Source: a virus (Duplodnaviria > Heunggongvirae > Uroviricota > Caudoviricetes). Taken from it: DNA of 12,662 nt. The notes under the pieces were generated by a model, which was not told where the DNA came from, did no database searches, and saw nothing but the letters and a program-made list of their open reading frames with translations. This document shows, piece after piece, positions 1 through 10,973 of the stretch (position 1 is the stretch's first letter; each line of letters starts with the position of its first letter). A program made the position numbers and the translations under genes. The DNA is taken from positions 1 to 12,662 of IMG/VR virus record IMGVR_UViG_3300029873_000363; one strand, given 5' to 3'.

Positions 1-249
1 ATGCGTATTGAAATCTGCATAGCCAAAGAAAAAATGACTAAAATGCCAACCGGTGCTGTGGATGCGTTAAAGGAAGAATTAACCCGACGCATCAGTAAAC
101 GTTATGACGATGTAGAGGTGATCGTAAAAGCCACCAGCAACGATGGCCTTTCTGTTACGCGCACCGCCGATAAAGATTCAGCTAAAACTTTTGTTCAGGA
201 GACTCTGAAAGATACCTGGAAGTCTGCTGACGAGTGGTTTTTTCACTAA
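1..249 (+). CDS. DinI-like protein (SOS/RecA modulator family), 82 aa
   Basis: ORF begins at window position 1 with MRIEI...; the translation has the DinI-family signature as I remember it (MRIE N-terminus, ~80 aa, acidic C-terminus ending ...[11 protein letters not shown], cf. DinI ...TWESADDWF). The upstream promoter and any LexA box lie outside the window. Confidence 0.75.
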
Positions 250-633: not shown

Positions 634-1206
634 GTGTTATCTTACTTAATAGCAATTCATTTTGTTTTACTTGGGAATTCTTCTGATTTAAAAAGCTTTT
701 GGAAATCTGAAGTAATACGGCGGGAGTATATGGATATCTGGAGGCTTTTCAGAGAAAAAAAACAGCGTAACAGGAATTTCCTTTTCTGGTGGCGGCTGGC
801 TAACGAAATGTATATTAATGGTAATAAATTACATAAGAAAGCTGCTAAAAAGTTAAACAATAAAATAATTAACAAATTTGGTTGCGAGATTGGACTGGGA
901 GCAAAAATTGGAAAAGGGCTAACAATTCCTCATCACGTTGGAATTGTTGTTCATTTTGCTGTTGATGCTGGTGAAAATTTGGTGTTACGACAGAATACTA
1001 CGATTGGACAGATAGATGGTGACATACCTGGTTCAAGAGTAAAAATTGGTAGTAACGTTGATATCGGAGCTAATTGTTGCATCATTGGATTATCACGTAA
1101 AATCGGGGATAATGTAAAAATAGGCGCAATGTCTTTTATAAATAAAGATATACCATCAAACTGCACATATATAACTAAAAAGAGCGGTGTTGTATTGTAT
1201 AAATAG
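634..1206 (+). CDS. Hexapeptide-repeat (left-handed beta-helix) acetyltransferase, serine-acetyltransferase/WcaB/NodL-like family
   Basis: GTG start at 634 with a strong AAGGAG SD 6 nt upstream. The C-terminal half shows tandem [LIV]-G-x4 hexapeptide repeats (AKIGKGLTIPHHVGIVV..., VKIGSNVDIGANCCIIG..., KIGDNVKIGAMSF) that align with the CysE/WcaB catalytic domain. The gene is visibly AT-rich compared with the flanking tail genes. An alternative in-frame ATG start exists at 730. Confidence 0.7.
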   Translation: MLSYLIAIHFVLLGNSSDLKSFWKSEVIRREYMDIWRLFREKKQRNRNFLFWWRLANEMYINGNKLHKKAAKKLNNKIINKFGCEIGLGAKIGKGLTIPHHVGIVVHFAVDAGENLVLRQNTTIGQIDGDIPGSRVKIGSNVDIGANCCIIGLSRKIGDNVKIGAMSFINKDIPSNCTYITKKSGVVLYK

Positions 1207-1214
1207 AGCACATA

Positions 1215-1254
1215 AAGCCATCGATATTTCTATCGATGGCTTTTTCTTTTTATT
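1215..1254. terminator. Rho-independent terminator, probably bidirectional, between convergent genes
   Basis: Perfect inverted repeat AAAGCCATCGATA (1215-1227) / TATCGATGGCTTT (1231-1243) followed by a T-tract TTTTTCTTTTTATT on the plus strand. It sits immediately 3' of the acetyltransferase stop (1204-1206) and overlaps the tfa stop (1250-1252, minus). Confidence 0.6.
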
Positions 1255-1828
1255 GTGGGGCGACTGGCCACTCAATATCCGCTGCTACTGTTGTATCAAC
1301 ACGGTTCAGCAACACCCGATACTTTTTCCAGGCTTCCAGCAACGAGTTTTCTTCCTCCGTTGCGATTTCCAGATCTGCAGCATCCTGAAGCGGCGCAATA
1401 TGCTCACTGGCTACCTGCATCAGGTTGTTTTTTGTTTCTTCCGCCTCCCGGATCCGGAACAGTTTTTCTGCTTCCGTATCCTTCACCCAGGCTGTGCCGT
1501 TCCACTTCTGAAACTCCCCTTCCGGCGATAACCAGGTAACATTTTCCGGTAACGGACCGAGTTCAGAAATAAATAACGCGTCGCCGGAAGCCACGTCATA
1601 AACCGTTTTACCCCGATGGTCTTCAACGAGATGCCACGATGACTCATCACTGTTGAAAACAGCCACGAAGCCAGCCGGAATATCTGGCGGTGCAATATCG
1701 GTACTGTTTGCTGGCAGACCTGTATGAGGCGGAATATATGCGTCACCTTCACCAATAAATTCATTAGTTCCGGCCAGCAGATTATAAATTTTTATGGTCC
1801 GTGGTTGTTCAGTCATTCTAAAATCCAT
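1250..1828 (-). CDS. tfa: Tail fiber assembly protein Tfa (lambda Tfa homolog)
   Basis: Translation ...[60 protein letters not shown]... matches lambda Tfa as I remember it. The ORF track starts at a GTG (1834), but the ATG at 1828 preceded by GAGGTG is the likelier start (MDFRMTEQ... vs lambda MAFRMSEQ...). Confidence 0.9.
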
Positions 1829-1836
1829 GTTCACCT

Positions 1837-2727
1837 CTACTTAATATCAGAGACAGAATATTGTTTATTGAGCGTATGGGTGGGAGCACCAATAACGATG
1901 CTACTTCCGTGGCTATGTGCGCCAGAGGTGAGATTGCCTACGGGATTTTCTGGATTAAACCGGTGTGTATGCGAATCAGGGCGAGAGCGATTATTAGTCA
2001 GCACGTCATCAGCCTGATGCACATGGCTAATACAGAACTGCCCGGAACGTGAGCAATACGTCCGATAATCGCCGCATCCAATATATTTAGTATCCGCATA
2101 ACGGCAAACAGAATTACCCGGACAGTATGCATATGTGCCAAATACTGCCGACTGGCGGGATTGTGCGTATTCCCAGTTAATTGATTCTGTTTTTTTATTA
2201 AAGTTATCCCATGCCTGCTTCATCTGCCGGGCAACACTTTCAAACGGCACCTGACCACATCCGGCTCCCATTGCAGGGAATACCACAGTTTTTATTTTCC
2301 TGTCTGTCGTTGCGTGTTTATTGTGCTGAAAGATGGCAAGCAGAGCGGCCCAGGTTGCGTTATATACAGCGTCTGTTCCGTCAATTGTCAGCTGAACACG
2401 CATTGTTGGCGCATGTACCAGCCAGGGGTGATGATTATGCCCCGTTTCAATTACAAATGCAGAACCTACAGGCTGTTCGCCTAAATATTCACGAAGAATA
2501 TGATTCTGAACGCGGGACTGTAACTGAGTACCGAAGAATGCGGTAATGGCGGCATCAACGCCGCCATCCATCAGGCCGAAACTATTTGCCGCACTTACCA
2601 TGCAGTCAAATTCTCTGATTGTTTCAAATGGCTTTCCGACAATATTCACATTATCTGCGTTTGCAAATACCCGCTTAAATGCTTCCGCCATTTCTGTTAC
2701 TGGTGCAGAAAGAATGAGCGTAATCAT
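1837..2727 (-). CDS. Hypothetical protein with macro-domain-like N-terminus and Cys/His-rich C-terminus, inserted between stf and tfa
   Basis: 296-aa ORF whose ATG overlaps the stf stop (ATGA, revcomp of 2724-2727) and whose TAG stop (1837-1839) lies 8 nt before the tfa ATG. The N-terminal ~170 aa carry macro-domain-like motifs: [21 protein letters not shown] (cf. D-x-IVNAAN-x-L-x-GGGVdgAI), GSAFVIETG...WLVHAP, and [14 protein letters not shown] (cf. AFPxISTGxxGxP). The C-terminal ~100 aa have five Cys and several His ([39 protein letters not shown]...SGAHSHGSS). Confidence 0.6.
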
Positions 2728-5393
2728 GCAAGCCTCACAATATAGTTAAATGCGATGTTTTTGACGGTGTTTTCCGCGTTACCAGCAGCGTTAACGGTGA
2801 TGGTGTGTCCATGTGAACCAATCGCAACGGAGTGCGCATGAGCACCAATTGGAACAGAGTGCGCATGGTTACCTGTAGTGCTTGTGGCACCAGACCAGGT
2901 TCTGGAAGCGTTAAAGTTTACAGGAACACCATAAGTAAATTGAGAGCCCGTAAATCCATGGGCTGGCGCAGAGCCACCCAGTGTAAATGCTCCACTTGCT
3001 GTATAGAAATTACCGCTATCACTTCTGAAGTAACCGAGAGTACCGGTAATTTCCATAGTGCCTCGGCTGTGGTTATGGTCACCAGTGGCATTTGAAGACT
3101 TAGTACCATAATCAAACGACGACGTGGTTTTCGTCCCCAAATCCGTACTGGATGCACTGGCGCTGTGGGCGTGCGATTTAATGCCGTCCTGTTCCTGAGA
3201 CAATACGGCACGACCACTGGCAGGTTTGCCCTTAATCGTCCAGCCACGCATATCAGGGATCACGCCTGACGGATAAGCGGCTGCAAGTTTCGGGTAGGCA
3301 GATTTGTCAAAAGTCTGCCCCTGCATCAGGGCATAACCAGACGGAACGGTATCCGATGGCCACGGGATTGGTGCGCCAGGCGGATAAAACTGCTCTGATG
3401 GCGTATAGAGTGAATAAACTGTACCGTCCGTTAACCCTTCCGGCTTATTAGCAGAATATGCTGGTGACGTATGAATCGTCACGCTGGCATTACTGGTATA
3501 ATCCCATTGAATATTTACACCAGTCGCATAATTTCCGATTGCAACGTAAATATCGTAAGTATCACCAGATGTATTGACCCAGGCAAAATTTGTAAACCCT
3601 GTCGATGTGCGCTGCCATAAAGCACCAGTAATCCCCTTCGGATTACCATTACCTGCACGCAAAACAAGTTCAGATATACCTGCCTGTTGAGGTGAACCGA
3701 CGTTAAATCCAGCGCCACCAATCAACGTAATTGAAACAACAGAACTCGCCTGTGGCATGGTTACCGTTGCTAATTTGAACCAACCAGCACCACCGCTGAA
3801 TGACATTGTTGTTGAGTTAAGCGTACCAATATCTTTCGGCGTCAGTGTTATATCCTCCGAAAGCGCCTTACCATTCACCTTACGGTCAGAAGGTACCCGA
3901 TCATTCGCATTGTCATTCGCTGCTTTAACTGCCTTCGGTGTCGCGGCAAGCGTTTCAGACGTACTGTTGGTCGCACTGCTGAGCTGTACTATCCCCTTTT
4001 TCGTCGTGCTCGCATCCTCAAGCGCCACGGCGGATGCAATATCCTCTGCCCGTTTTGCCGCTGTCTCAGCGCGCGTTGCTGCGGATTCTGCCGTACTTTT
4101 GCTCTGTGCTGCCGCTGTCGCACTGCCAGCAGCCTCTGTCGCCTTTGTGGATGCCGTCGTGGCGCTGCTCTTCGCTGCTGACGCCTGTCTGGTCGCCTCA
4201 TCTTTTGAAGCAGACGCCGATGATGCCGATGACGCCGCCGAACTGGCGGACGATGCCGCTGCCGTTTTTGAGGATTCTGCGCTGGTTTCCGACGCTTTCG
4301 CGTTCGTTTCGGATGTCTTCGCTGAGGAAGCAGACCTCGCTGCTGCGCTGGCCTGTTCAGTGGCTTCGCCAGTCTTCGTTGTGGCTGTTGAAGCGGATGA
4401 TGCGGCGCTTTCTGCCGATTTTCCGGCGGCGGTGGCACTGACTGAGGCCTGCCCGGCACTTATTGATGCGGCACTGGCGGACGACGCAGCCGCTGTTTTT
4501 GAATCTGCCGCAGCTGAGGCACTCTGTCCCGCTGCCGTTTCAGAAGACCTGGCGTTCGTCTCGGACGTTTTGGCCGCCTTCGCAGAATTTGCTGTCGCCG
4601 TTGCCGAGGAAGCTGCGCTGCTGGCGCTCGAGGCTGCGCTCGTTTCTGATGATTTTGCCGCCTCTTTTGAAGCCGACGCATCCCGGGCTGAGGTGGCAGC
4701 TTCTGACGCTTTCGTGGTCGCGGTGGATGCAGAAGTGGCTGCTGATTGTTGTGACGCTGCGGCATTCGTTTCTGACGTTTTCGCCGCAGCGGCACTGGTG
4801 GCCGCCGCGCTTTTTGAGGACTCTGCAGCGGCAGCACTTTTTTCCGCTTCAGTGGCCTTTGTTGATGCCGTTTCTGCGCTGGAAGACGCTGACTGAGCCG
4901 ACGACGCGGCCTGTCCGGCTGACGTGCTGGCTGCGCGTGCTGAGCCTGCAGCATCAGTCGCATGGGTTGCCGCCTCACGGGCTGATGTGCTGGCATCGCC
5001 GGCTGACTTCTTCGCGGCTGCCGTGTTCTGTGCCACTGCGGACGCGTTACGCTCCACCTCTTCCACCATCACTTCAAAACGGCGCAGTGCCTCCGGTCGG
5101 ACATCATCCTCCGTCATGGCACCGAGAAAATCATTCAGCGTACCTGGTCTGGAACCTTCATAGACGGTAATGGTCCCGGCATGTGAAGGCGGAAAACCTT
5201 CAACCAGCAGGGTGACGCTGTACTGACCATGCTCAACATCCATGCTGTAACGCCCGGCTTCATCCGGATTTTCAGATGCCAGCGTGTTCACCACCACCGT
5301 GGTACTGTTACGTTTTGCTTTCAGCTGGATTGTGCAGTTCTGTACCGGTTTTCCTGTGCCGTCTTTCAGTACACCTGAAATTTTTACTGCCAT
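2724..5393 (-). CDS. stf: Side tail fiber protein Stf (lambda Stf homolog), 889 aa
   Basis: N-terminus [37 protein letters not shown]... is lambda-Stf-like. A long Ala/Ser/Thr-rich repetitive shaft follows. The C-terminus has the conserved tail-fiber tip motifs (GAPIPWPSD..., [25 protein letters not shown], repeated HxH: [26 protein letters not shown]) and ends ...[11 protein letters not shown]. The ORF is intact here. Confidence 0.9.
3986..5066 (-). repeat. Low-complexity Ala/Ser/Thr-rich repetitive region of the Stf shaft
   Basis: Stf residues ~110-470 are degenerate repeats such as [21 protein letters not shown]. The corresponding GC-rich DNA yields long spurious ORFs on other frames and the opposite strand (Ala-rich and Arg/Pro-rich artefacts). 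Confidence 0.5.
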
Positions 5394-10332: not shown

Positions 10333-10973
10333 TTGTCGGTGTACCTCTCTCGTTTGCTCAGTTGTTCAGGAATATGGTGCAGCAGCTCGCTGTCACCACA
10401 GTAAATGGCGGCATGATTCGGCACCGATGAACCAAAACAGCACAGCAGCACANNNNNNNNNNNNNNNNNNNNNNNNNNNNNNNNATACAGCCCTGTGGCC
10501 TCCAGATTATCCAGATAGAGATTCTGACCGTGACGCCACCAGTCATCCCCGCGATGAAAATCCGGCATCTCAATCCCCGCCAGATGGTAAGCATCCCGGA
10601 ACAGCGTGTAACAGTCCGTCACCCCGTGCTCAAAGCGCCGCCCGGAAAGATGTGGCACACAGCGGAACTTGTGAATCGCCCCCCGGCAAACCAGCCACCA
10701 CGGCAAATTACTCTGCACCTGCAGCCGCCGGTCGGTCTCACTCAGCCAGGGCAGACCACCGGGGTGGCTGTGGACCAGCGCCACAATCTCACCCTGCATC
10801 TCTGCCCGCAGCCAGTCCTCCGGCGACATCCGGAAATACTCCTCCGGCTCACCGGAGATATTCACGCAGGGAAAATATCTTTCCCCCTCCGGTGTTCTCA
10901 CCACGAAGCCGCACGACTCCGCTGGCGCACATCGCCGGGCGTGCGCCAGAATCGCTGATTCTGTCTGTGTCAT
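10230..10973 (-). CDS. K: Tail tip assembly protein K (lambda K homolog; MPN/JAMM-like plus NlpC/P60-like motifs), interrupted by an assembly gap
   Basis: MTQTESAILAHARRCAPAESCGFVV... with a JAMM-like HSHPGG...SETD motif and a downstream Cys/His region (TDCYTLFRDAYHLAG). The ORF reads through 34 Ns (about 11 X residues), so the true sequence and length across 10454-10487 are unverified. Confidence 0.8.
   Translation of the reverse strand: MTQTESAILAHARRCAPAESCGFVVRTPEGERYFPCVNISGEPEEYFRMSPEDWLRAEMQGEIVALVHSHPGGLPWLSETDRRLQVQSNLPWWLVCRGAIHKFRCVPHLSGRRFEHGVTDCYTLFRDAYHLAGIEMPDFHRGDDWWRHGQNLYLDNLEATGLYXXXXXXXXXXXVLLCCFGSSVPNHAAIYCGDSELLHHIPEQLSKRERYTDKWQRRTHSLWRHREWHASAFTGIYNDLAAASTFE
10454..10487. 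other. Assembly gap (34 N) inside gene K
   Basis: Run of n characters in the sequence. Confidence 1.

Follow-up and report, generated by a model that had tools for sequence, protein, structure and literature searches.

The present study suggests that a macro-domain protein encoded within the tail-fibre locus of a lambdoid Escherichia coli prophage carries, at its C-terminus, the His-rich repeat from which gp37-type fibre tips are built. The window analysed is the whole stretch of 12,662 nucleotides (nt) of IMG/VR virus record IMGVR_UViG_3300029873_000363, which is the tail end of the prophage and is 100% identical to NZ_AP022298; the gene in question is an open reading frame (ORF) of 296 amino acids (aa) lying between stf, which encodes the side tail fibre, and tfa, which encodes the tail fibre assembly chaperone. 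We tentatively favour, at a level that falls a little short of probable, a model in which the C-terminal tail would serve a late-expressed ADP-ribose enzyme as a trimerisation stalk of the fibre type, stapled by metal ions. The features on which the argument turns are as follows.

2724..5393, minus strand: side tail fibre Stf, 889 aa, with PF08400 and PF07484 (Collar) matches.
1837..2727, minus strand: macro-domain ORF, 296 aa, with its ATG at 2725-2727 and its stop at 1837-1839.
2143..2727, minus strand: macro domain proper, aa 1-195, from AlphaFold2 (AF2), Foldseek and Pfam.
2008..2136, minus strand: Cys4 knot, aa 198-240, from invariant alignment columns.
1840..2007, minus strand: variable tail with the His repeats, aa 241-296, not confidently folded as a monomer.
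1963..1977, minus strand: repeat 1 of the tail, D251-S-H253-T-H255, with G changed to D (PDSHTH vs PGSHIH in the family).
1909..1923, minus strand: repeat 2, G269-A-H271-S-H273 (SGAHSHG), the sole canonical G-x-H-x-H in the window's copy.
1873..1890, minus strand: repeat 3, I-G280-A-P282-T-H284-T, degenerate, with H changed to P (GAPTHT); relatives have IGAHTHT or IGAHSHT.
1250..1828, minus strand: tail fibre assembly chaperone Tfa, from a PF02413 match (E 2.3e-42) and the RefSeq annotation.

The first-pass annotation of this DNA had described the C-terminal ~100 aa of the ORF as containing five cysteines and several His-x-His (HxH) motifs. Translation of 1837-2130 (minus strand), which encodes the last 97 aa, reproduces this description, with 5 Cys, 7 His and 3 HxH at H235-V-H237, H253-T-H255 and H271-S-H273; a degenerate P-T-H-T is also present. 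This feature is genuine rather than an accident of composition: at least three HxH motifs arise in 0.44% of 100,000 shuffles of these 97 residues, and in the window the motif is absent from J, Tfa, Lom, I, L, M and the acetyltransferase and occurs five times in Stf. The longer motif G-x-H-x-H has a background frequency of 4.8e-5 per residue (208,205 residues of unrelated ORFs), which corresponds to 0.0026 expected per 55-aa tail, and of 55 unique tails almost every one has between one and three copies of it. The HVH at 235-237, by contrast, is not conserved: relatives have xxHQ there.

It had also been proposed that these motifs are of the type found in tail-fibre tips, and that the adjacent Stf C-terminus bears them too; both points find support. 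The C-terminal ~235 aa of Stf correspond to the collar, Fe-His needle and head of T4 gp37, with five HxH motifs (phmmer against the PDB: 2XGF, E 1.7e-79). In the gp37 tip, seven Fe ions are coordinated through the HxH motifs, whose histidines are indispensable (PMC6957217, PMC11705849). The repeats of the upstream Stf, Φ-I-G-A-H-x-H-T-V-x-I, are matched by those of the macro tail, and the two sets have in common Ile at -1, Ala at +1 and Thr after the second His, followed by Val/Ile, x and Ile/Leu. When 47 macro repeats were scored with a position-specific scoring matrix (PSSM) built from 38 fibre repeats, from which the G/H/H positions had been excluded, their mean was +2.84, against -6.19 +/- 4.70 for composition-matched controls, and hhalign of the tails with fibre C-termini gave a probability of 91.9% (E 6.9e-7) over 12 columns only. 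Like the macro tail, the T4 gp37 needle (2XGF) and its lambda Stf and P2 gpH-type homologues carry tandem Φ-I-G-x-H-x-H-[TS]-[VI]-x-[IL] at a spacing of 9-12 residues, and fibre tip genes and the macro ORF alike lie directly upstream of a Tfa/gp38-type chaperone gene. In contrast to the gp37 tip, however, the macro tail has no collar, head, outgoing strands or fibre-type terminus, contains only 1-4 repeats and extends an enzyme domain instead of a shaft, and no sequence-level homology to such tips is detectable beyond the motif. Pfam found no Collar domain in the macro ORF, and Foldseek searches of the PDB and BFVD matched the macro domain and never the C-terminus.

Among 15 diverse tails, with a mean column identity of 34%, H1, Q2, H17, H19 and H48 are invariant and G15 and G44 nearly so, and the motif His and Gly are kept in Escherichia, Salmonella, Erwinia, Enterobacter, Citrobacter and Izhakiella while all else diverges. 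In Izhakiella australiensis, 300-aa variants (L012-L014; three copies per genome, at contig ends) have the Cys4 knot swapped for an unrelated and far more Cys-rich linker (CGC...CDCGCG...CRC...C), and they retain the G-x-H-x-H repeats, as GRHNH, GAHTH, GCHDH and GAHHH, together with a GVKK end.

Several observations weigh against reading the tail as a conserved, fibre-type stalk. The ratio of nonsynonymous to synonymous substitution rates (dN/dS) in the tail is 0.36-1.2; two of the motifs in the window's copy are degenerate, so that constraint may be relaxed; several abundant Salmonella forms retain one G-x-H-x-H only; and within clades the motif columns vary less than others, but not significantly (Fisher p 0.26-0.57). 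The likeness to fibres is confined to the motif, at 12 aligned columns: BLASTP of the C-terminal segment against its own Stf gave an 18-aa match at E 0.04, and phmmer of the C-terminal 107 aa against the PDB gave no match at E<=10. The repeats may instead have arisen by convergence on a metal-binding motif and not through kinship with fibres. In addition, the gp37 needle is six-stranded, with three strands running out and three back, and a tail running in one direction only is not known to have a structural precedent.

The macro gene is a discrete, optional cassette that is dispensable for fibre assembly. Its ATG (2725-2727) overlaps the TGA of stf (2724-2726) as ATGA, and the annotated ATG of tfa (1826-1828) follows 8 nt past its stop, with AGGTGA just before it. 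The same overlap with the stop of a '...VRLA' fibre is found in 70/70 IMG/VR loci, and in 68/72 loci the distance from the macro end to the tfa start is between -10 and +25 nt. The order stf-macro-tfa recurs in lambdoid elements (the window and Gifsy-1), P2-like elements (SEN5, Chuche) and P1-like elements; the family, which includes the copy in Gifsy-1 of Salmonella LT2 and those of P2-like and P1-like elements, comprises about 1,700 protein clusters. Among 5426 complete E. coli genomes, 128 carry the macro gene and 5236 this tfa. In O104:H4, a fibre tip that is 99.7% identical over 652 nt abuts tfa directly with no macro gene between them, and a requirement for the macro gene in fibre assembly was rejected on this ground; macro-less loci also encode a Tfa that is ~97% identical, and their homology ends exactly at the tfa ATG (megablast of the same E. 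coli genomes with a query that spans the macro tail and the tfa 5' end). Because the same tip and a near-identical Tfa occur without it, the macro gene lies outside the fibre assembly pathway. It resembles the Tfa/gpG/gpU chaperones and the T2-type gp38 adhesins (PMC6957217) in position, in translational coupling and in travelling with the fibre tip between unrelated phages, but it is unrelated to PF02413 or gp38 in sequence and in fold, is dispensable and encodes an enzyme-type domain.

The frame is open through the tail in 72/73 loci with a macro ORF. The sole disrupted copy of the 73 (L137, IMG/VR UViG 2529292735_000009) is frameshifted to 242 aa and loses its frame ahead of the knot. Salmonella phage SEN34 (L004) has an orphan, decayed macro remnant at ~3990-4160, beside an O-acetyltransferase gene and with no tfa after it, in which a mid-domain piece lies in one frame and the stretch from the knot to the first GAHSH in another (WYASARQ...YIGAHSHAKRN*). 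RefSeq also calls the macro genes of the P1-like elements L006 and L007 frameshifted; the L007 ORF is intact at 289 aa, ending ...HTTNKQ, and it was apparently flagged because it is shorter than a 296-300-aa variant that reads through YSVSDIK. No promoter-like site was found between stf and the macro ORF, and the region holds eight such sites against a shuffled expectation of 4.9 +/- 2.4, which is not above it; a promoter of its own for the macro gene was rejected on this basis. The GC content of the gene is similar to that of its neighbours, and reading of the sequence at the ATGA overlap revealed no slippery heptamer at CTTGCATGA for a Stf-macro frameshift fusion.

The N-terminal part of the protein has the three-layer α/β/α fold of macro domains. 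RefSeq names the product 'macro domain-containing protein'; PF01661 matches aa 44-169 over profile positions 1-118/118 (E 5.4e-19, 68.7 bits against a gathering cut-off of 22), Macro_2 (PF14519) covers aa 42-101 only and at 24.6 bits stays under its gathering threshold of 27, and PF02413 (Caudo_TAP) has no match in the ORF. The ORF belongs to phrog_2613 (aa 1-266, E 6e-141), a family with no assigned function whose 274-position profile stops before the last 30 aa of the 296-aa variant. AF2, run in monomer mode, performed poorly overall with a 20-sequence alignment; a deeper alignment of 82 sequences rescued the macro domain, at predicted local distance difference test (pLDDT) values of 71-97, and did not rescue the tail. 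With this model Foldseek found 176 PDB matches at E<=0.001, of which all 50 listed are macro domains or designs on a macro-domain scaffold, the best being 1NJR, yeast Ymx7/Poa1p, an ADP-ribose-1''-phosphatase (E 4.8e-10). An alignment of 20 diverse family members shows N48 and G55-G56-V57-D58 to be invariant and a loop at G154-A-G-C-G158, and dN/dS of 0.08-0.20 indicates purifying selection. The N-x6-G-G-V-D and G-x-G-x-G loops, which bind ADP-ribose in characterised members, are common to Poa1p/Ymx7 (1NJR) and MacroD/YmdB, as is the fold, but identity to solved structures is 17-26% and the C-terminal extension is unique to the macro ORF. MacroD1 and YmdB have a His after GGVDxAI, a site at which the macro ORF has Thr. 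The Poa1p/MacroD-like domain suggests a protein that would bind or hydrolyse ADP-ribose or a derivative of it. Membership in the DarTG system as a DarG antitoxin was rejected, with a sub-threshold PADLOC match (E 0.0045, 14.5 bits, no single stretch passing) and Stf and Tfa, rather than a DarT-like protein, as neighbours.

Standalone homologues of ~200 aa, ~50% identical over aa 1-195, occur in many phyla (Chloroflexota, Cyanobacteria, Acidobacteriota, Bacteroidota and others) and share W-x-Y-A-x2-R-Q ... G-G-D with the fibre-locus protein. In contrast to it, they lack the Cys4 knot, the His repeats and a phage tail context; they end in RQxxIRFGGDxGF and have no conserved neighbourhood, the best neighbour cluster being present in 11/63 loci. 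An exhaustive HMMER search of 1.84 billion representatives found the C-terminal extension in family members only, plus one spurious repetitive protein of 1109 aa, and a word-index search for the C-terminal domain elsewhere returned three fragments, all of the same family. The name 'phage tail protein' is attached to many subfamily members, among them jumbo-phage copies and copies on the chromosomes of Chloroflexota and Cyanobacteria; it has probably been propagated from the enterobacterial fibre-locus copies and is no evidence of a structural role.

Between the macro domain and the tail lies a Cys-rich segment with the pattern Y-C202-P-x4-C208-x2-A-x3-Y-I-G-x-G-D-Y-R-T-x-C225-x3-G-x2-C232-I-S-x2-H-Q, in which C202, C208, C225 and C232 are invariant among the 20 diverse members and C218 varies (C/F/L/S/Q). 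It has a dN/dS of 0.13-0.5 and no Pfam, PDB or fold match. The first-pass annotation had named, as part of what would refute its idea, a C-terminus predicted to take up a fold unrelated to fibre tips, and the monomer models go halfway towards this: the Cys segment is predicted with moderate confidence as a small β-rich mini-domain of five short strands (pLDDT 59-68), and the HxH tail has no monomeric fold (pLDDT 26-45). The lack of a monomer fold for the tail is compatible with folding in an oligomer only, but is no evidence for it. The Cys4 mini-domain is a putative structural Zn site, with its invariant Cys in two pairs (C202/C208 and C225/C232) at spacings of 5 and 6 residues that are atypical for a zinc ribbon or Cys4 zinc knuckle. 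The knot reads as an elaboration of the macro subfamily's native C-terminus, and not as fibre sequence, because G219-D220 aligns with the GGD of the standalone motif (GGDxGF vs C218-G219-D220). Mosaicism within the gene is evident from synonymous divergence (dS): L010 and L011 from Erwinia differ by 1.7 in the macro domain and 0.22 in the knot, and L012 and L013 by 0.41 and 0.06. This contrast points to recombination breakpoints at the macro/knot boundary, and the knot and tail may therefore move together with tfa and not with the enzyme domain.

We favour the trimerisation stalk because the tail repeat is the same as that of the needle strands, in which HxH motifs from three chains bind metal. 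In this model, the ORF is an optional mobile cassette that sits exactly between a gp37-type fibre stop and the tfa start and brings a Poa1p/MacroD-like domain with a lineage-specific C-terminal extension composed of the Cys4 mini-domain and then the His repeats. The second part of this extension, with 1-4 copies of Φ-I-G-A-H-x-H-[TS]-[VI]-x-[IL], has the repeat of the returning strands of the needle, where an HxH from each of three chains contributes to octahedral metal coordination, and the tail would likewise form a metal-stapled homotrimerisation stalk, possibly folded with the help of Tfa. The protein would be made late, through coupling of its translation to that of Stf, and is not needed for fibre assembly. 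A bolder extension, which we regard as quite doubtful, holds that lambdoid, P2-like and P1-like phages would bear the Tfa-folded, metal-stapled trimer on their side tail fibres, with the needle repeat co-opted as a portable docking/trimerisation tag for cargo, and that a virion appendage would thereby display or deliver a protein that binds or hydrolyses ADP-ribose.

Three other explanations bear on the same evidence. The protein may be a purely cytoplasmic late or moron enzyme, such as an ADP-ribose hydrolase that serves counter-defence or one that scavenges signals derived from ADP-ribose (ADPr), with a generic Zn/metal-binding or regulatory appendage; this we consider rather unlikely. The general proposal for macro domains of phages is that they reverse ADP-ribosylation or break down signals derived from ADPr (PMC7824862, PMC12487901), which we counted in its favour, and it accords with an optional cassette that has clean edges at the stf stop and tfa start, with the strong conservation of the macro domain and not of the tail, and with a knot derived from the subfamily's own C-terminus. 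On this account the location would reflect conserved flanks (stf 3', tfa 5') that spread the cassette by homologous recombination and guard against its loss. It leaves unexplained, however, why the tail should have the extended fibre consensus I-G-A-H-x-H-T-V-x-I rather than any His-rich sequence, and why the repeats persist despite the swap of the Cys linker; moreover, expression coupled to late tail genes fits an early counter-defence role poorly, and the sub-threshold DarG match and missing DarT-like neighbour described above lend it no help. A somewhat smaller likelihood attaches to a virion-docked accessory, the idea of the first-pass annotation, whose tail would attach the macro protein to the fibre, directly or via Tfa, so that the particle would bear it and its macro domain would bind or hydrolyse some substrate at the cell surface or during entry. 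T2-type gp38 adhesins and Mu Tfa are encoded just downstream of fibre genes and remain on the tip, a precedent that we counted for docking. The invariant slot between fibre and chaperone genes, with translational coupling on both sides in three phage architectures, the fibre-type repeats of the tail and the lack of the extension in non-phage homologues all fit it as well. Yet needles of the gp37 type form a closed trimer in which the C-termini run back to the collar, so that additional strands have no evident place to go. The same tip and Tfa also work where the macro gene is missing, and that gene is far rarer than this tfa in E. coli (128 vs 5236 genomes); known macro substrates are intracellular, and the database entries that read 'tail protein' owe this name to propagation.

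The remaining alternative starts from the suggestion of the first-pass annotation that the segment could be a recombination remnant of a fibre-tip module. In the form considered here, the event that brought in the macro gene would have left part of a fibre C-terminus behind, which is now decaying and without function. We judge this very unlikely, and comparison with the fibres themselves does not support it. A tail dN/dS of ~1 in some pairs, the variable tail length and degenerate motifs in the window's clade, and the existence of decayed copies (the SEN34 remnant and the L137 frameshift) are what a remnant would predict, and LNPEYLSGVKNDV bears a weak likeness, seen by eye and without statistics, to a 12-residue fibre stretch. 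Against this, the motif His and Gly are retained across six genera while the rest diverges, the homology of macro-less loci ends at the tfa ATG, the 11-residue end of fibre C-termini is found in no tail, the Cys part belongs to the native macro C-terminus, and the frame is open through the tail in all but one of the 73 loci. Nor was nucleotide similarity between tails and fibre 3' ends taken to exceed that of shuffled controls, and a recent fibre remnant was rejected on this comparison (blastn-short, 9 tails against 9 fibre 3' ends, best 30.2 bits vs up to 28.2 for codon-shuffled sequences).

The rest of the window consists of tail genes and, beyond tfa, two genes on the opposite strand.

Minus strand, same window: tail genes H (3' end), M, L, K, I and J, then lom.
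634-1206, plus strand: hexapeptide acetyltransferase, low GC.
1-249, plus strand: dinI-like gene.

The acetyltransferase gene is a moron with a GC content of 32-35% whose product is EpsC/CysE/WcaB-like, under all curated cut-offs; it is found in 530/5426 E. coli genomes and is convergent with tfa, with a bidirectional terminator between them (1214-1243, 13-bp stem). Sugar/LPS acetyl- and glycosyltransferase genes also lie just beyond tfa in the P1-like plasmids L006 and L007 and adjoin the SEN34 macro remnant; the presence of transferase genes near macro cassettes may be a coincidence of moron hot-spots or may reflect a link to surface-polysaccharide modification. Within stf, the central shaft (~3750-5170) is Ala/Ser/Thr-rich, with 58-64% GC and a strong AT skew, and it gives rise to long but spurious ORFs of 379, 235, 178 and 156 aa, which are read in other frames or from the opposite strand. 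A run of 32 N at 10453-10484, in the gene for gpK (tail tip, NlpC/P60-like), gives X residues in several overlapping ORF translations.

The macro gene is common and its locus is among the best studied in phages, and we found in the literature no description of the fibre-locus macro protein, of its C-terminal module or of its role, nor any proteomic data that place it in purified particles. The question of its tail is open to a cheap experiment in a standard model, Gifsy-1 of Salmonella LT2. If it is true that the His repeats are a transferable, metal-dependent trimerisation/docking tag, then the gp37-type needle repeat would be reusable outside fibres, which would be useful for engineering and for spotting other 'cargo' proteins in fibre modules. 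Furthermore, if the macro domain is active, late or virion-linked processing of ADP-ribose would tie tail-fibre modules to the conflicts between phage and host that centre on ADP-ribose and NAD.

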